A DNA stretch of 64,000 nucleotides, taken from contig MEOD01000084.1 of NCBI GenBank assembly GCA_001768555.1, forward strand, positions 175-64,174, read 5' to 3'. Source of the DNA: Bacteroidetes bacterium GWF2_29_10. Its GTDB lineage: Bacteria; Bacteroidota; Bacteroidia; Bacteroidales; GWE2-29-8. Below the pieces are notes generated by a model. The model was given only the letters and a program-made list of their open reading frames with translations, did not search any database and was not told the DNA's origin. Of this stretch, positions 1 through 63,997 are shown piece by piece (position 1 is the first letter of the stretch; each line of letters starts with the position of its first letter). Made by a program: the position numbers and the translations under genes.

Positions 1-123
1 TTATACCCAAAACAACCTACGACCCCGACAGGGTCGAACTGAACTCTAGCCCCTCTCTTTCTACAAACCTTTGATTCCGAATGCATCATTGGATATTAAT
101 TATCTATACTTATACTTTTATTT
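1..123. repeat. REPIN-like composite palindromic element, copy 1 (truncated by window edge)
   Basis: Aligns with 2419-2543 (caacctacgaccccgac-gggtcg ... ttctacaaacc ... gaatgcatcatt ... tatacttatacttttattt); abuts the stop of 124..1068. Confidence 0.9.
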
Positions 124-1068
124 CTATTTTTCTTCATTTCCATAAGCCTTTTTATCATATTCATCCATATATTCATCTATATATTTTTTTTCTATAATAC
201 ATTTTTTGTCTATGCTTTTTAAAAGACTATATTTTTCAATTAAAGGCTTAAATCTCGCTTTTCCATAATCACTTAACCCATTAAAAAATAAAAACACTAA
301 CTCGTAATTTGACAATTGTGCCCTAATAAAATTTATATAAGTCTTTTTATCCTCTATATCTGAATTCTCTACAAACTTAATGATATGATATAAATTGCAA
401 AAATAATTTCTGATATTACTATCTTCTACATGTATATTGCAAATCCCTTCCTTTATGGAATATCCTAATTTATGATCAGTTTGTAAACTAGTTAATAATT
501 TTGAATGTTCTTCGGTATCCCAATATAATTTAAAACAATCTCTTCCTTTAGCAATAATCTCTTTCAAATTCGTACTTTTTCTTAATTCCATAGCATTAAC
601 AATATTAGAATGCACATTCAACAATTGAAAAAAAGTATTTTCAAAACTTTGCTTCGTCATAGTTTTATTTTGAGCTTCTAATTGTTGCTTTTGTCCTGAT
701 AATTCTTCCGTATTTTTTGCCATTTCATCCCTTTGTAATTTCAGCTCATCCCTTTGTAATTTCAATTCTTCTCTCTGCATTCTCAATGTTGTATAAAATA
801 ATATTACACTGACAAAGGTAAATATTACGCCAATTGTTCCTGACAAAAAGCTTCCCATATTCCCAAGTAAACCCGTATCAAAAGCACTACTACTATCATA
901 GTACTGATGAATGCCAAACATTATAATTGCTCCTATTAAAATAGCAATACAAACATTAATTAAAATATTTGCAAAATTTGTAAGTCTTTTTTCTTCCGCT
1001 TGCGAATCGTTATTTATTTTTAATATTCTCAATATTCTTATTTTTATTCTTTTGTTTTCTATTTTCAT
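124..1068 (-). CDS. Putative phage abortive infection protein (putative AbiC-like family) with N-terminal TM helices and coiled coil
   Basis: FENTFFQLL...YFCNLYHIIKFV...YINFIRAQLSNYELVFLFFNGLS motif set recognised for this family; two hydrophobic N-terminal segments; QREELKLQRDELKLQRDE heptads. Confidence 0.75.
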   Translation of the reverse strand: MKIENKRIKIRILRILKINNDSQAEEKRLTNFANILINVCIAILIGAIIMFGIHQYYDSSSAFDTGLLGNMGSFLSGTIGVIFTFVSVILFYTTLRMQREELKLQRDELKLQRDEMAKNTEELSGQKQQLEAQNKTMTKQSFENTFFQLLNVHSNIVNAMELRKSTNLKEIIAKGRDCFKLYWDTEEHSKLLTSLQTDHKLGYSIKEGICNIHVEDSNIRNYFCNLYHIIKFVENSDIEDKKTYINFIRAQLSNYELVFLFFNGLSDYGKARFKPLIEKYSLLKSIDKKCIIEKKYIDEYMDEYDKKAYGNEEK

Positions 1069-1258
1069 TATACTTTAATTCTTTCCATTTAATAAACCTA
1101 TAACATTTTTTGTAGTTAAATAAATTTGATTGTCTTTTCTACAATTAAGTAAAATGTAATTATTTGTATTGTAATATATTCTAGTGATAAAATTAATGTA
1201 TTGGCAAAATTTTATTTTGCAATTGTTTTATTATAAATTTTAATTTGAATTAATTCAC

Positions 1259-2287
1259 TTATTGCATCGCTGTTAATATATCATCCTCAAAATATAGGTA
1301 ATTATCTGTATATACCCATTGTTCTGATTTTTTTTTATCTGTAATTGTTTTATTTATTTTATTTGGTTCTCCCCATGAAAGTTTACACATTTCTCTTGTC
1401 ATTCCTATTTTTATGTTATTTTGTAAAATTGTATTAAAATTTTCATTTCCAAATATTTTTTTATAATTATCAGCTTCCAATATTGTATATGCTCTACCTT
1501 TGCTAAATCTCCCATAAATATTATCATAATCTATTGTGGTAGTTTCTCCTAATGAATTTTGAACAATAAGAGAAAATGTGTAATTTTCTTCTTCAATTGT
1601 TAAATCAACACATTTCCATTTATCACCTGTTATTATTGTTAATTCTTTTCCTGTATTAATATCTAATGATAGTTTTGGATTGGCATCACCAGGAAATCTA
1701 TATTTTATATTTTTATTAGCAAATATAAATTCTTGTCCAACATTTATAGATTTTTGTTTTTCAAAAAAGCCAACAACAATAAATTCAAATTGACTTTCAT
1801 ACTTACTATTATATTCAAAATAAACTATATCTTTAGATATTTTTTCTTGTAATTTAAGATAAAAAACATTTCCATAAAGAAACTTATCGCTATTGGCTTC
1901 AGGATGTTTTATTACCTCTAAAATATTAAAATATTTACCAACTATTGAGTCATAATGAGAAGTTCCTCCACCTATATCATTTTTTATATATCTATCACCT
2001 TCCAATAAAGGTTTAACTTTATATGTGTTACTTAATTTTCTCTTATCTTCTTTATAATTTAATATAAAATTGCTATATCCGTACTTACGAAGAATTTCTG
2101 CTTTTCCCTTTAAATAAAGGGTTTGTCCTATATATTTGTATACATTTTCTCCTAAAAAGTTTTTAGTACTATCATAAGGAGTATTATCTATTTGCTCTGC
2201 TTTTGGAGCAATTTTCGTTGTTGTAATTTGTGCATAAGATAATATATACAAAACAGTAAATAGAATAATAAATGTTGTTTTTTTCAT
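1259..2287 (-). CDS. Secreted hypothetical protein with C-terminal SmpA/OmlA-(BLIP)-like small domain
   Basis: ATG at 2287 gives signal peptide MKKTTFIILFTVLYILSYAQ (the ORF-track TTG at 2314 overlaps a TATATTTG promoter box); C-terminus IGMTREMCKLSWGEP...EQWVY...LYFEDDILTAMQ. Confidence 0.7.
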   Translation of the reverse strand: MKKTTFIILFTVLYILSYAQITTTKIAPKAEQIDNTPYDSTKNFLGENVYKYIGQTLYLKGKAEILRKYGYSNFILNYKEDKRKLSNTYKVKPLLEGDRYIKNDIGGGTSHYDSIVGKYFNILEVIKHPEANSDKFLYGNVFYLKLQEKISKDIVYFEYNSKYESQFEFIVVGFFEKQKSINVGQEFIFANKNIKYRFPGDANPKLSLDINTGKELTIITGDKWKCVDLTIEEENYTFSLIVQNSLGETTTIDYDNIYGRFSKGRAYTILEADNYKKIFGNENFNTILQNNIKIGMTREMCKLSWGEPNKINKTITDKKKSEQWVYTDNYLYFEDDILTAMQ

Positions 2288-2311
2288 AATTTTTTTATTT
2301 TTATTATTAAG

Positions 2312-2319
2312 CAAATATA
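2312..2319 (-). promoter_or_regulatory. Bacteroidota -7 promoter box TATATTTG
   Basis: Matches TAnnTTTG about 25 nt upstream of ATG 2287. Confidence 0.5.
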
Positions 2320-2379
2320 ATTAATTTTTTTAAAATAATTAACTTACTACATTTTATAATTTAGATTGCTATTTTGAAT

Positions 2380-2543
2380 TTTAATTATCCCATCGGGATA
2401 AAACGTTTGTAGAACAAATTATACACAAAACAACCTACGACCCCGACGGGGTCGTACTTAACTCTATCCCCTCTTTTTCTACAAACCATTGATGCCGAAT
2501 GCATCATTTTGAATATTAATTCTATATACTTATACTTTTATTT
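2380..2543. repeat. REPIN-like composite palindromic element, copy 2 (more complete)
   Basis: Hairpins TTATCCC-atc-GGGATAA (2385-2401), ACGACCCC-gac-GGGGTCGT (2437-2455), GATGC-cgaat-GCATC (2491-2505); inverted pair GTTTGTAGAA (2405-2414) / TTCTACAAAC (2477-2486). Confidence 0.9.
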
Positions 2544-3047
2544 ATCTTTTTCTATTTCTTTTAGTTCATTAATAAAAAGAAAATACATTCGCTTTAATAT
2601 CATTAATATTGTTAAGAAAAAATGTCCAATTAAAAAATAAACAATTACTGTTGCAATTAAATGAACACATTCGTTTTTTATATAAGTAGTTAATATTACT
2701 ATTATAATTAAAATTGAAATAAAAATAGAATACGATATATTTGTTAATAGTTGTCTTAAAATTTCATTTTTTAACTTTTTCGTATTATCTCGTTTAATTA
2801 TATCAAAAAGTATAACAATAATATTAAAAAGCAAACCTACAAATATTGAGAGAGTTGTTATTATAATATTAATAGCATTCTCTTTTAATTCAAAATCAAA
2901 CCAATACAATCCAACAGATACTAATAAAGGTAAAATTAAAAATGTTAATATATCATCAAACTCACATTTCTTTGTATTATCATTTTGCAATGTATTAAAA
3001 TGATTGGATATAATTTTAAAAATATTAATTTTATTAAACATTTTCAT
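2538..3047 (-). CDS. Four-TM membrane protein, candidate RexB-like effector
   Basis: 169 aa with four hydrophobic segments (about aa 31-50, 57-83, 99-122, 129-157); starts 3 nt after the stop of 3051..3986. Confidence 0.7.
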   Translation of the reverse strand: MKMFNKINIFKIISNHFNTLQNDNTKKCEFDDILTFLILPLLVSVGLYWFDFELKENAINIIITTLSIFVGLLFNIIVILFDIIKRDNTKKLKNEILRQLLTNISYSIFISILIIIVILTTYIKNECVHLIATVIVYFLIGHFFLTILMILKRMYFLFINELKEIEKDK

Positions 3048-3050
3048 AGC

Positions 3051-3986
3051 TTAGTTTTCCGTTAGTTCTAAAATCAATTTTTTTGCAATTTCATTAATGC
3101 TATCAAAATCAGGATGTCCAGACTTGTTTTTAATTACATCCTTATCAATATCGTAATAAGGTCTTATATTTGCCGTATCAGATAAATCTATTGTTCTTGT
3201 ATTGCCTTTATGCTCAATTTTAACCTGTGATTTATGATTACCATCAAACCCCAAAGATGTTAATTCTTTCAAATCAAACATTATAGCATTCTTATCTTTA
3301 ACAAATTTTTCAATTTTATTATTTCCAAAAGATTTCATTTGTTTTGCAGTAATTTTTATTTCAATAGATTTAATCGCTTCTTGATATCCTTGCATTCCTA
3401 ATTTATCTACAACATCAGTAGGTAAATTATATCTAGTTAAAGTAAATTCTTTAATATTTCCTTCTTCAATAAATGTTTTTGCTAATTTATCTGAAATAAA
3501 TTGATTAAAATCAAGTTGCATGCTATTGTATTTACTACAAAAAAACTTTTTTAGATGTTCTCTTAATACACTATTTATCCCATAAATTCCAAATCTTTGC
3601 AAAATAACATATCCTATACTACAATTTGATGGCAAATAAATTAAAAAATAAAATGGCTTAATATCTGCATCATTTATTGTTTTAGTATATTGTTTCGCAC
3701 TTGTTATAACATTATAAATCTCGCTTTCGTATCCATATCCCCCACTTTCAATAATACCACTAATCATTCTTTTTTCTGTTGATAATTGTAATTTTTTAGA
3801 ATCAATTTTTAAAGATTTCTTTCTTTCTTCATCAATGTTAAGTTCTTTGTCAAAAGAAGATATGTAATCTTGAAAAAAAACTAAAAAATCATTCTTATCA
3901 AAAAAGTCATCTAAAGGTAAATATTCCTTATTTCTTTCTTGTCTTATTTTGATTGTGTATACTTCTAACCTTACTTCATTTGCCAT
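3051..3986 (-). CDS. Soluble hypothetical protein, candidate RexA/DUF4747-like (RdgC-fold) partner
   Basis: 311 aa with no TM segment; ISGIIESGGYG...KPFYFLIYLP...GYVILQRFGIYGI pattern; coupled to the 4-TM gene. The ORF is solid; the family call is inference. Confidence 0.6.
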   Translation of the reverse strand: MANEVRLEVYTIKIRQERNKEYLPLDDFFDKNDFLVFFQDYISSFDKELNIDEERKKSLKIDSKKLQLSTEKRMISGIIESGGYGYESEIYNVITSAKQYTKTINDADIKPFYFLIYLPSNCSIGYVILQRFGIYGINSVLREHLKKFFCSKYNSMQLDFNQFISDKLAKTFIEEGNIKEFTLTRYNLPTDVVDKLGMQGYQEAIKSIEIKITAKQMKSFGNNKIEKFVKDKNAIMFDLKELTSLGFDGNHKSQVKIEHKGNTRTIDLSDTANIRPYYDIDKDVIKNKSGHPDFDSINEIAKKLILELTEN

Positions 3987-4077
3987 ATGTAATACATTAT
4001 ATTTGTTTTATATTTGTTTTTTTAATGTAAATTAATTCTCTATATATAGTTTATTCTTTTTGTGCTTTTTTTATTAA

Positions 4078-4818
4078 TTATTGTATTATATTTTTTATTT
4101 CTTCTGGTAGCATGGGTTTTATAATTTCGGCAGTATTACTTAAAAACTTTCTATTTTCTTCCTTTGCTAACCAAGCTGACGTTTTATAAAAGAATGCTTT
4201 AAACCAATTTTTTTTATTTAAAGAGTGAGTCATTAATTTTAAATTTTCAAATTCTTTATGTAATTCTAAAATACTTTGCTTTAGCTCTTTGTTTTCTTTT
4301 TCTTGAACTTCTAATTGTTTTTTTAAGTCTTCTTCTATTTTATCTATTTTTGTTTTTATTTCTGTAATTTCTAAATCGCTGAAATAACTATCATCATCAT
4401 AATCTTTAATTTTATCATTTATATCATTAATTATCTTAGCTTGTTCTGCAATTTTTCTATTAATTGGAATAGTTAGAAGATCTTCATATAAACAATTCAT
4501 CCATTTTTTAATTGCATAATATAGATTGCGTTCTCCATAAACATCAAATTCTTCTTGTGTTACAAATTGACCTGGACAATAATATCCTTTAAAATGATAA
4601 TCTTCATCATTTGAAATAGAAATTTTACGTTCTACTATTTCTTTTTTTATTATTGATAAAGAATTTGGAATAGCACATTTAAAATAGTATGATGCATCAT
4701 ATGCATATTTTATTACAATAGTATTATTATTAATATCAATAATAAAATCTATTGAAGAAAATTTAGGATTTTCATCTATAAATACTCTTATATCTTGTTT
4801 AAATTTAGGTCGTATCAT
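4078..4818 (-). CDS. Hypothetical protein with C-terminal coiled coil
   Basis: Open frame of about 246 aa (ATG 4818; ORF track uses TTG 4827); IKTKIDKIEEDLKKQLEVQEKENKELKQSILELHKEFENLK heptads. Confidence 0.7.
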   Translation of the reverse strand: MIRPKFKQDIRVFIDENPKFSSIDFIIDINNNTIVIKYAYDASYYFKCAIPNSLSIIKKEIVERKISISNDEDYHFKGYYCPGQFVTQEEFDVYGERNLYYAIKKWMNCLYEDLLTIPINRKIAEQAKIINDINDKIKDYDDDSYFSDLEITEIKTKIDKIEEDLKKQLEVQEKENKELKQSILELHKEFENLKLMTHSLNKKNWFKAFFYKTSAWLAKEENRKFLSNTAEIIKPMLPEEIKNIIQ

Positions 4819-5030
4819 TTTTCTCAAATTTAATTACAGGCATTAGCAACCTTGTTGTTTATATACATAATTTTATTAATAAATCGCACTGCAAGGTACA
4901 TATTTTCATTTAATATAAACATAAAATAAAATTATTTTTATCATTTTTTTTATGATTTTCATATTATGATTATTTCAAGATTCCACCACTAACTCATTTT
5001 CTTTCAATCACTATTCATATTTCTTAAAAT

Positions 5031-5219
5031 CAAACTCATTTTCCCAAAATTCGTAATTCTTAATTCTCAATTTTTAATTAATTGTTCTCTCCCCAAACTT
5101 CTTTTCTCAAAATTCGTAATTCGTAATTCTAAATTCGTAATTAATTGTTCTCTCCCCAAACTCATTTTCCCAAAATTTTCAATTTTCAATTATCAATTAT
5201 CAATTAATTGTGCTCTTCT
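5031..5219. repeat. Three 63-bp units containing 7-bp (AATTCGT/AATTATC) microrepeats
   Basis: CAAACT starts at 5031, 5094 and 5157; each unit ends AATTAATTGT(T/G)CTCT... Confidence 0.85.
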
Positions 5220-5484
5220 CAAACTTAATTGTGCTCCTCTCAAACTTCTTTGTGCTCTGCCCAAACTTAATTGTGCTCCTCTAAAACTTAATTGTGCCAC
5301 TCTCAAACTTAATTGTGCTCTGCCCAAACTTCTTTGTGCTCTGCCCAAACTTAATTGTGCTCTGCCCAAACTTCTTTGTGCCACTCTCAAACTTAATTGT
5401 GCTCTGCCCAAACTTAATTGCGCTCCTCCCAAACTTCTTTGTGCCACTCTCAAACTTCTTTGTGCCAGTCTCAAACTTAATTGT
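5220..5484. repeat. 21-bp tandem array (12 full units + partial), CAAACTT(AAT/CTT)TGTGC(TCCTCT/TCTGCC/CACTCT)
   Basis: Unit starts every 21 bp from 5220 to 5472, read directly. Confidence 0.97.
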
Positions 5485-5557
5485 TTTTAACTTATTATTC
5501 TAATTATCACTATTTTAATTAAAATAAAAAAACCATGCCTTTTTAGACACGGTAATT

Positions 5558-5591
5558 AAAAAAAAAGCAAAGCTTTGTGTGCTTTGCTTTT
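5558..5591 (-). terminator. Intrinsic terminator of the oadG-oadB-nhaD operon (possibly bidirectional)
   Basis: Perfect 11-bp inverted repeat AAAAGCAAAGC (5563-5573) / GCTTTGCTTTT (5581-5591) with U-tract on the minus strand, 25 nt after stop 5617. Confidence 0.75.
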
Positions 5592-5616
5592 AGGATGTAT
5601 ATATGGATGTTAAACT

Positions 5617-6960
5617 TTACTTTATTATGTTTTGCTCAGGATTGATTGTTTCTACTTGTTCGGTTTGTTCTTTATGTTCTTTTTTATGAGGAGCGTGAGG
5701 ATGCCATCCAACTAGTGAAATCATAACGAAGAAGCTAACAATATAAGCTAAAGTAACGTGCCAGCCATTGCTTATGTACTTAACTGTGTTTTTAGCTTCT
5801 GGATACATGTTTGATAAAGCTACTCCGGCAGATGAGCCAAACCAAATCATTGAGCCTCCAAAGCCAACAGAATATGCTAAAATGCCCCAGTCATAACCTC
5901 CTTGCTCAAGGCAAAGTTTTGTTAATGGAATATTGTCAAATACTGCTGAAATAAAACCTAATGAGAATGCACTCCACATTGATGCCGGAGGTAATTCATT
6001 TACTGGCATAACTGATGCAATTGTTACTAAAGACATTAAAAAGACTGTTCCTTGCAATGAATTTTTTATTTCTTCCCATGGGGTTTTCCTAAATGTTGCT
6101 CCCAATAAAATTCCAATCCAAACTCCTACTGCAGGGAAATCTAAAAGCCAATTTGTTAGTATTGCAAAAACTAGTATTAAAAATACAATAAATATTCTAC
6201 CAAAATCAACTTTCACATTTTCTATATGCCCCATTACAATCGTTTGATATTTGTCTTGCTGTTTTGCTCCCCAAATTCCAAATATAAATAAAGCTACAAC
6301 TGACCCAATAAAAGCATGGGTTACATCAAGAGGATTAACTCCATCAATCCACATAAGAGTGGTTGTGGTGTCTCCAACAACGCTGCCTGCGCCGCCAGCA
6401 TTACTTGCAGCAACAATAGCAGCTAAATACCCGATATGAACTTTCCCTCTAAAAACAACATAAGCAATCGTTCCTCCAATCATTGCAGCCGCAATATTGT
6501 CAAGAAATGAAGAAAGAATTGTTATTGCAATTAGCAGAACAAATGCTCCTTTCCATCCTTTCGGAAGAAAACGAGGTAATATTTTAGGAAACTTTGACTC
6601 CTCAAAGTGCTTTGCTAAAATAGCAAACCCAAAAAGTAAGCCCAAAAGGTTAACCAAAGTTCTCCATTCTCCTTCATTTTCTCCATCGCCGATAATATGA
6701 CTGACAATGTTAAACTCGCCATCAAAAACAAATTTAAAAGCAAGAATAGCTACTAATCCTGTCAAGGCAACATACATTGTTTTATGATGAAAAAGTGCAA
6801 CCCCGACAAGAGTTAATGCGAAAATTATAAATTCCAATCTAATTCCCATTATCGAAGGAATTATTGATTGAGCAGATGAATAATCGGATGCAAAAATAAA
6901 TACAGGTAATAATAATAAAAATACAACTAAAAAGGAAACTTTGTTGATTAATGTTTTCAT
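5617..6960 (-). CDS. nhaD: NhaD-like Na+/H+ antiporter (IT superfamily / CitMHS-ArsB fold)
   Basis: LSSFLDNIAAAMIGG, NAGGAGSVVGDTTT, SAVFDNIPLT, GGSMIWFGSSAGVA motifs; many TM helices. Confidence 0.75.
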   Translation of the reverse strand: MKTLINKVSFLVVFLLLLPVFIFASDYSSAQSIIPSIMGIRLEFIIFALTLVGVALFHHKTMYVALTGLVAILAFKFVFDGEFNIVSHIIGDGENEGEWRTLVNLLGLLFGFAILAKHFEESKFPKILPRFLPKGWKGAFVLLIAITILSSFLDNIAAAMIGGTIAYVVFRGKVHIGYLAAIVAASNAGGAGSVVGDTTTTLMWIDGVNPLDVTHAFIGSVVALFIFGIWGAKQQDKYQTIVMGHIENVKVDFGRIFIVFLILVFAILTNWLLDFPAVGVWIGILLGATFRKTPWEEIKNSLQGTVFLMSLVTIASVMPVNELPPASMWSAFSLGFISAVFDNIPLTKLCLEQGGYDWGILAYSVGFGGSMIWFGSSAGVALSNMYPEAKNTVKYISNGWHVTLAYIVSFFVMISLVGWHPHAPHKKEHKEQTEQVETINPEQNIIK

Positions 6961-12200: not shown

Positions 12201-12513
12201 AGATCCTCTTTTAATTTACAAATTGGAATCATTCAATCTTTTCAAAACAATGATATCTAAAATTAATAGGAATGTTATTTCATTCTTGTATAAAGCAGAT
12301 ATTCCTATTGAAGAATCAAAGACTGTTAAAGATGCTCCTATAAAAAAGGTTGACCACAGTAAATTAACAACAAGCAGGGCTAATGATTTAGTAGCTAACA
12401 CTGCTCCACAGGAAGAAAAACGACAACCTATAATTGCAGAGAAAAAAGTGGGGAGAAATGACTTATGCCCTTGTGGAAGTGGGAAAAAATATAAACATTG
12501 TCACGGTCAATAA
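9229..12513 (+). CDS. secA: Preprotein translocase subunit SecA
   Basis: [38 protein letters not shown]-terminal SEC-C ([19 protein letters not shown]). Confidence 0.99.
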
Positions 12514-63826: not shown

Positions 63827-63862
63827 TTTAATTATCCCATTGCGATATAACATTTGTAGAAC
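63827..63862 (+). repeat. Partial third copy of the left arm of the REPIN-like element
   Basis: 32 of 36 nt identical to 2380-2415. Confidence 0.85.
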
Positions 63863-63875
63863 GAAATGATTCCAT

Positions 63876-63997
63876 TGCTTTAATCTTCAACCCCAAACTA
63901 ATAGCTCCGAAGGAGCGAAACAATAGTAACCACCTGCTTTAATCTTCAACCCCAAAACTAATAGCTCCGAAGGAGCGAAACAATAGTAACCACCTGC
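63876..63997 (+). repeat. Tandem 59/60-bp repeat containing a GCTCC-gaa-GGAGC hairpin
   Basis: Units at 63876-63934 and 63935-63994 differ by one A; a third begins at 63995. Confidence 0.9.

Follow-up and report, generated by a model that had tools for sequence, protein, structure and literature searches.

A three-hairpin, REPIN-like repeat associated with IS200-like Y1 transposase genes in Bacteroidota

At one end of a 64,000-nucleotide stretch of the draft genome of Bacteroidetes bacterium GWF2_29_10 (2.8 Mb in 110 contigs), two direct repeats lie at the 3' ends of two unrelated accessory genes and raise the question of what these repeats are and whether they set the genes beside them in motion. 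This stretch, which corresponds to positions 175-64174 of contig C84, is hereafter called the window, and positions given without a contig name are window positions. A first-pass annotation had offered two answers, i.e. that the repeats are GTAG-bearing repetitive extragenic palindromic (REP) or REPIN elements, substrates of REP-associated tyrosine transposases (RAYTs), and that they delimit exchangeable gene units. Our analysis assigns the repeats to a dispersed family of three-hairpin elements, which adjoins the gene of an IS200-like Y1 HUH transposase in this genome and in most of the orthologous Bacteroidota loci examined. The best explanation, to which we give a probability of about 0.78, is a small family of REPIN-like non-autonomous elements handled in trans by this transposase, encoded on contig C21.

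The repeat pair and its family

The announced pair of direct repeats was borne out: positions 1-133 and 2419-2553 are about 90 % identical (91 % match between 1-90 and 2419-2508, 89 % between 89-133 and 2509-2553) at a spacing of 2418-2420 nt, and a BLASTN search of the genome with the second copy (copy 2) as query returned the first (copy 1) at E = 2.7e-60. Copy 2, on the plus strand like all repeat features given here, has an intact core at 2378-2509 that scores 107.9 bits with a covariance model. It comprises hairpin A (TTATCCC-atc-GGGATAA, 2385-2401), a GTTTGTAGAA box (2405-2414), a central hairpin (TACGACCCC-gac-GGGGTCGTA, 2436-2456), a TTCTACAAAC box (2477-2486) and hairpin B (TGATGC-cgaat-GCATCA, 2490-2506), so that the anatomy described earlier, two inverted hairpin/GTAG arms around a central hairpin, can be read directly from the sequence. 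The core of copy 1 (1-88; in full C84:134-265) is truncated at the window start; it retains the central hairpin (20-36) and hairpin B (72-88), each with one mismatch, and the TTCTACAAAC box (59-68). Folding as single-stranded DNA (ssDNA) gives copy 2 energies of -23 kcal/mol for one strand and -24.8 kcal/mol for the other, each with z = -6.3. Copy 1, whose mismatches affect both the central hairpin and hairpin B, reaches -12.8 kcal/mol (z = -2.5) and is a decaying copy.

Using nhmmer and the covariance model, the element was found at about 14 places in the genome, distributed over 6-8 contigs: nine copies on C84 (including an array at C84:64003-65261), four on C21, others on C26, C85 and C86, and weaker ones on C46 and C77. 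All copies are intergenic, and the occurrence of the core on 6-8 contigs rules out a simple local duplication. Five of about 12 loci lie less than 300 bp from contig ends and the array holds N gaps, so that this count is too low and the true number probably higher. The array is opened within the window by a half copy (hairpin A arm plus spacer, 63829-63894, plus strand), continues beyond the window end to C84:65261 and contains at least 6 copies along with other REP-like modules.

The element is about 130 nt long and consists of hairpin A, GTTTGTAGAA, a central CGACCCC-nnn-GGGGTCG hairpin, TTCTACAAAC and hairpin B, each inverted arm being a short hairpin followed by (A/C/G)GTTT(G/A)TAGAA. Three subfamilies were distinguished, all of them with hairpin-AA(C/G)GTTTGTAGAA, the central hairpin and TTCTACAAAC-nTTT-hairpin; in the C46 and C77 copies, the central stem carries a compensatory change (CGACCCA...TGGGTCG). 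A short repeated extragenic palindrome with dispersed copies and two inverted arms, the element is REPIN-like.

Y1 transposase genes beside the element, here and across the phylum

The Pfam Y1_Tnp model detected three genes in the genome, on C21, C7 and C37, each of them single-copy. The C21 gene (C21:3704-4165) encodes a 153-aa protein (82.9 bits, cut-off 23) and has a full element 81 nt upstream (C21:3497-3626) and three copies downstream (C21:4127-4528), the first of which begins 10 nt past the stop codon. The search suggested with the first-pass annotation, for an IS200-like TnpA gene flanked by the same hairpins, thus proved positive, and a single-copy Y1 gene flanked by its own repeat is the arrangement by which REPIN-RAYT pairs are recognised. 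Of about 12 loci in the 2.8-Mb genome, two touch one of only three Y1 genes, which is very unlikely to be a matter of chance.

The three Y1 proteins (147-153 aa) are 39-46 % identical to one another, with the Y motifs YIMNQKEHH, YILNQSEHH and YINNQEEHH, an HuH motif that reads KHIH or DHIH, and WQ in two of the three (WR in the C37 protein). All three pass the NCBIfam IS200 model (C21 protein: 60.7 bits, cut-off 55). The NCBIfam REP_Tyr_transpos model gave no match for the C21 protein and 19-31 bits for its two paralogues (cut-off 80), and a PDB sequence search with the C21 transposase returned marginal matches to ISHp608 TnpA only (E = 0.04). TnpA-Y1 subclass 1.2 has been defined as proteins of about 148 aa with DH[IV]H, WQ and the Y motif Y---Q--HH (YIKNQKEHH), hosted by Cyanobacteria and Bacteroidetes at low copy number, with 36 % mean intragenomic identity, without insertion sequence (IS) properties and with 'no' in the REP column (Quentin et al. 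2018, PMC6006769). The C21 protein carries the motifs of this subclass and, as judged by motif and not by tree placement, appears IS200-like rather than a classical class-2 RAYT; the likeness extends to length, HuH, WQ and Y motifs, low copy number, divergent paralogues and the Bacteroidetes distribution.

The two other genes, C7:6954-7409 (151 aa) and C37:40011-40454 (147 aa), are also subclass-1.2-like and are flanked by other hairpin-repeat families (e.g. GTAG-CCACCTGCGTTAGCGGGTGG), each gene being followed by a family of its own: GCCCCGTTGGGGC with GTAG-CCACCTGCG...GGTGG, and CCGTCGGTTGCACCGACGG-TTAC. These families are dispersed at 5-13 copies and interspersed with the present element in arrays. 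With three Y1 genes, each having its own dispersed repeat family, this genome contains three parallel gene/repeat systems.

To assess conservation, a protein scan was carried out on one genome per species. It yielded 311 loci with C21 relatives, and the best 80 of these, at 66-77 % identity and mostly one per genome, were examined; they span Chitinophagaceae, Bacteroidales, Flavobacteriaceae, Cytophagales, Ignavibacteria and others. A hidden Markov model (HMM) of the element was built solely from the copies of the present genome, and matches were counted up to 250 nt from the orthologous gene. Of these 80 loci, 66 have the element near the transposase gene (upstream in 33, downstream in 48 and on both sides in 15), matches clustering less than 300 nt from the gene ends. 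BLASTN of the element against 40 relatives had given no match, because the method is too insensitive; the HMM and the covariance model later found the element.

Across 42 aligned elements, the fraction of paired cells is 92.5 %, as against 35-48 % with slid partners, and 16 of 30 pairs show compensatory double changes, which back all four helices; the observed covariation score was reached in none of 500 shuffles. Hairpins A and B vary freely with compensation, and the central hairpin is nearly invariant. The arm boxes covary (GTTTGTAGAA with TTCTACAAAC versus GTTTATAGAA with TTCTATAAAC), as does the T:A / G:C pair at the outer end, with G:C to A:T covariation within GTTT(G/A)TAGAA / TTCTA(C/T)AAAC, and the long-range helix between the arms is 87 % paired, with 5 covarying pairs. 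The tetranucleotide reads GTAG in this genome, and most relatives have ATAG instead; it is found 8-9 nt to the 3' side of the arm hairpin and not directly 5' of it.

The element is also dispersed in other genomes. With covariance model R1, about 11 copies were found on a complete 6.0-Mb chromosome, where three adjoin the gene and seven further sites carry the remainder; the count is 12-14 in two other genomes and nine in one more, in which all are stacked beside the gene. A homologue at 50 % identity or more is present in 16 of 60 genomes of the same order. The element was found in 13 of the 60, namely in 8 of these 16 and in 5 of the other 44, and it adjoins the gene in at least 4; the filters of this survey were strict, which makes the absences soft. 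On the complete chromosome of a Draconibacterium-like genome (G041:C1:3223359-3224559, locus L103), three copies stand exactly 534-535 nt apart between convergent genes, a spacing that points to tandem amplification of a unit exceeding the element.

The earlier reading of the repeats as GTAG REPINs and RAYT substrates can thus be kept in part: the element is REPIN-like and, from the C21 locus and the 66 of 80 loci, likely a Y1/HUH substrate, and the part that falls is the enzyme, which is not a classical class-2 RAYT. Unlike what is described for subclass 1.2, a dispersed hairpin family flanks each of the three members found here, and in 66 of 80 loci of one clade the element accompanies the gene. 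In the literature searched, there was no report of subclass 1.2 transposases linked to a conserved three-hairpin repeat, and since Quentin et al. 2018 list the subclass without REPs, the link between these IS200-like transposases and such a repeat across Bacteroidota looks unreported.

Gene ends, neighbouring genes and arrays

Past hairpin B, copies 1 and 2 have a 45-nt tail in common (89-133 and 2509-2553, plus strand), which contains stop codons read on the minus strand. The abortive-infection (Abi) gene ends with TAG at 124-126 and has an in-frame TAA at 118-120, and TAA 2538-2540 of gene 2538..3047 falls in the same alignment column and frame as TAA 118-120; read directly, the stop codons are where the first-pass annotation had placed them. 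Its further claim, that similarity runs up to the gene ends, applies to these two copies and not to the family, the tail being outside the family consensus: the full 45 nt are common to copies 1 and 2 only, and the first 23 nt recur at C84:65259-65281 and weakly resemble the sequence that follows hairpin B in other copies.

The distance from the stop codon of the transposase itself to the start of hairpin B is 1-5 nt in most orthologous loci; at loci L023, L034 and L037 the element's (G/A)TAG serves as the transposase stop, and on C21 the TGA of the upstream open reading frame (ORF) falls inside hairpin B. Stop codons supplied by the element match the description of GTAG REPs, whose copies lie near gene 3' ends and sometimes supply the stop codon (PMC3733652). 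A general preference for stop codons, which it had been proposed to look for, did not emerge in the four genomes considered, where dispersed copies are intergenic and have no significant link to stops. Of the informative loci in this genome, 5 of 7 have hairpin B facing a stop, as have 10 of 16 dispersed copies in three other genomes (15/23, not significant); for hairpin A the figure is 8/15. Element-to-stop distances are usually 13-1200 nt, most of them exceeding 70 nt.

The genes that flank the two copies (the Abi gene and the 169-aa gene) are on the minus strand. Between the copies, the 2.4-kb unit holds two genes, both on that strand: the gene of a 314-aa membrane-anchored putative abortive-infection protein (124-1068; Pfam putAbiC, E = 7e-23), whose 3' end enters the first tail, and that of a 342-aa protein (1259-2287), which has a signal-like N-terminal segment and matches no family. 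The third gene (2538-3047, minus strand), whose stop codon is within the second tail, encodes a 169-aa membrane protein without family match. Together with a 311-aa soluble protein encoded 3 nt away, this protein, which has four transmembrane segments, occupies 2538-3986 beside the Abi gene; Pfam and NCBIfam searches with the 311-aa and 169-aa proteins gave no match, and the two may form a two-gene defence pair. Other assemblies contain population variants of the region (loci L094, 6940-7482; L095, 2723-3022; L100, 1-2974): the 169-aa membrane gene encodes 180 aa in one sample and is interrupted in another, where a 99-aa call is accompanied by about 290 nt of additional DNA; two assemblies split the secA call in two.

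The arrays at C84:1-135 and C84:63,990-65,300 (window 63,816 onward) are built on a higher-order unit of about 550 nt that repeats at 93-95 % identity. It comprises, in order, the half copy, GCTCC-gaa-GGAGC module(s), CCACCTGCGAAGCGGGTGG, GCCAC-gaag-TGGC, a full copy, GCCTC-aaag-AGGC, GTAA-CCAGTTGCGTAAGCGGCTGG, GCGCC-gaag-GTGCGGC and CTCCTTAAGTCCAAGGGAG. The unit combines modules from at least three REP families, each linked to a different Y1 gene.

A side finding concerns the 64 kb that the two arrays enclose (window 1-64000 with C84:64003-65261; loci L092, L093 and L099), hereafter called the segment. An independent MEGAHIT contig of 64,370 bp (L092) runs through C84:10160-1, then about 240 nt of array, then C84:64111-61572 at 100 %, and in this way joins the window start (beyond the Abi gene and copy 1) to the window end (from about 63,937 downwards) via the REP array. 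Both ends of this contig map to C84 at about 12,361-12,383 and, as they meet there, the contig closes the segment into a loop. In a second assembly, breaks at both arrays leave a 64,101-bp piece with nothing but the segment; the route of a third (L093) through the array differs, and C84 itself spans the array via N gaps. The segment carries secA and central-metabolism genes, which makes a plasmid unlikely. The loop may be an artefact of assembly through near-identical higher-order repeat units; the alternative, a real tandem or circular form produced by recombination between the arrays, is rather unlikely in our view.

Competing explanations and significance

According to the explanation we favour, the element would fold as ssDNA into three hairpins and a long-range stem, and the C21 Y1 HUH enzyme would recognise, cut and re-join it in trans. 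By analogy with IS608 TnpA and E. coli TnpA-REP, the invariant central hairpin could be the sequence-specific site; the (G/A)TAG boxes are candidate cleavage or guide positions, and the covarying outer hairpins would have a structural role. Copies would come to lie between genes, often shortly after a gene's 3' end, and the tail-bearing variant (45 nt, AT-rich) may have landed at the ends of two unrelated genes, where it now supplies the last few codons and the stops. On this view, copies 1 and 2 are by-products of the spread of the element and not cassette borders.

The resemblance to the REPIN-RAYT systems of Pseudomonas and E. coli (TnpA-REP/YafM) is extensive. In both, short extragenic palindromic repeats have two arms in inverted orientation, a single-copy HUH-Y1 gene stands between members of its own repeat family, several such gene/repeat pairs coexist per genome, and some of the copies next to gene 3' ends provide the stop codon (PMC3733652). 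A less exact parallel is the conserved (G/A)TAG tetranucleotide close to a hairpin. The present system differs from the REPIN-RAYT systems in its IS200-like subclass 1.2 protein, which is not of class 2 and falls below the NCBIfam REP_Tyr_transpos cut-off, in its tens of copies at most, in its third, nearly invariant central hairpin, in a tetranucleotide that stands 3' of the arm hairpin at about 8-9 nt, in the direct orientation of the flanking copies, and in an element sequence that is conserved phylum-wide and not only in one lineage.

Several observations weigh against the handling of a REPIN-like element by the C21 enzyme. The copies flanking the C21 gene are in direct orientation, as are IS200 ends, and not inverted as around the E. 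coli RAYT gene, and the protein passes the NCBIfam IS200 model and not REP_Tyr_transpos. Cleavage and transposition by this enzyme are proposed by analogy, and no empty-site/filled-site pair of the element was found. Precise, end-defined transposition does not explain a 45-nt tail present in only two or three copies. Some genomes (G002, G022) hold strong copies of the element with no close homologue nearby, and under the stricter filters no element came up in eight genomes whose homologue is at least 50 % identical. Finally, 2-15 copies per genome are far below classical REPIN populations.

A different view of the same association, which we regard as rather unlikely, is that the element is not a selfish REPIN: a domesticated Y1 HUH enzyme of subclass 1.2 would have it as its conserved partner, as DNA (or RNA), the two forming an ancient module inherited across Bacteroidota. 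This view would account for the low copy number, the conservation across orders and the position of hairpin B, fixed 1-5 nt after the stop codon. If so, the CGACCCC-nnn-GGGGTCG hairpin would be the specific ssDNA site of the enzyme, and the dispersed copies would be host sites, e.g. for replication-linked ssDNA processing or for 3'-end transcription control.

We consider it improbable that the element-tnpA-element arrangement on C21 is an autonomous IS of the IS200/IS605 type and the solo copies its miniature derivatives, i.e. miniature inverted-repeat transposable elements (MITEs). The NCBIfam IS200 score of the protein and the direct flanking copies, which are placed like IS200 left and right ends, speak for such an IS, as does a relative (G012) with two equally scoring gene copies 723 nt apart; IS608, ISDra2 and PATE-type derivatives likewise combine an ssDNA Y1 HUH transposase with direct subterminal hairpins and short gene-less forms. 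However, identity among the three Y1 genes of the present genome is no more than 39-46 %, their flanks differ and a separate repeat family goes with each, no near-identical multiple copies of a tnpA-bearing unit were found in this genome, and tnpB is absent. The solo elements are internally palindromic and not a simple fusion of left and right ends, and similarity to ISHp608 TnpA is marginal. Orthologues at 66-77 % identity across orders, mostly one per genome, fit an IS poorly, as do the low copy number, the 36 % mean intragenomic identity and the lack of IS properties of subclass 1.2 (PMC6006769).

A host function, in which the three-hairpin unit is a 3' untranslated RNA structure (a terminator or stabiliser) or a selected protein-binding DNA site and its repetition is secondary, is very unlikely in our opinion. 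It could draw on the unusual conservation of the central hairpin across orders, on hairpin B lying 1-5 nt after the Y1 stop codon in most loci, on loops of the stable GAA and TTCG types, and on the gene-sense strand of copies 1 and 2, where the central hairpin is followed by GGTTGTTTTG with a terminator-like score. However, that T-rich run is not conserved in relatives, which led us to reject a classical intrinsic terminator, and no Rfam family was matched at E up to 1 in a search of window positions 1-6000. The covariance model scores both strands similarly, which fits a DNA palindrome better than an oriented RNA, and gene-free tandem arrays are hard to reconcile with terminators. A side role as a 3'-end RNA structure, not conserved, is possible.

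The least credible explanation is the cassette model, in which the direct copies are attC-type sites and the unit formed by the Abi and secreted-protein genes is gained, lost or amplified by recombination: imperfect palindromes 2.42 kb apart do lie in one orientation directly after the stops of co-oriented, promoter-less accessory genes, with homology reaching the stop codons, but two genes instead of one separate them, other copies stack in gene-free arrays (C84:64003-65261), stop codons show no general link to the element in four genomes, the best integron integrase match (TIGR02249) is XerC/D-like (74.5 bits, cut-off 265), the arms do not fit the attC R''/R' consensus (RYYYAAC / GTTRRRY) when judged by eye, and four independent assemblies of the same population (L092-L095) keep the order 311aa-169aa-E2-342aa-Abi-E1 with an identical element 2. 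No deletion of the 2.4-kb unit was seen in the contigs of assemblies spanning the region (at the contig level only, where rare recombinants would escape), and no array of single-ORF units each ending in a recombination site was found, the copy arrays containing no ORFs. The lack of an IntI above the cut-off and, by eye, of the attC consensus led us to reject an integron attC identity, and the exchangeable gene unit proposed in the first-pass annotation was not borne out.

In practical terms, such repeats break short-read assemblies of Bacteroidota metagenome-assembled genomes and are able to supply the stop codons of neighbouring genes. REPIN-RAYT systems are the best-studied mobile DNA persisting by vertical inheritance and have mainly been described for the class-2 RAYTs of Proteobacteria. 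The survey that defined subclass 1.2 reported no REPs, which left this subclass without a substrate or function. Subclass 1.2 now gains a concrete candidate substrate, a covarying three-hairpin element that stands beside the gene in most orthologous Bacteroidota loci and is dispersed elsewhere in the genome.

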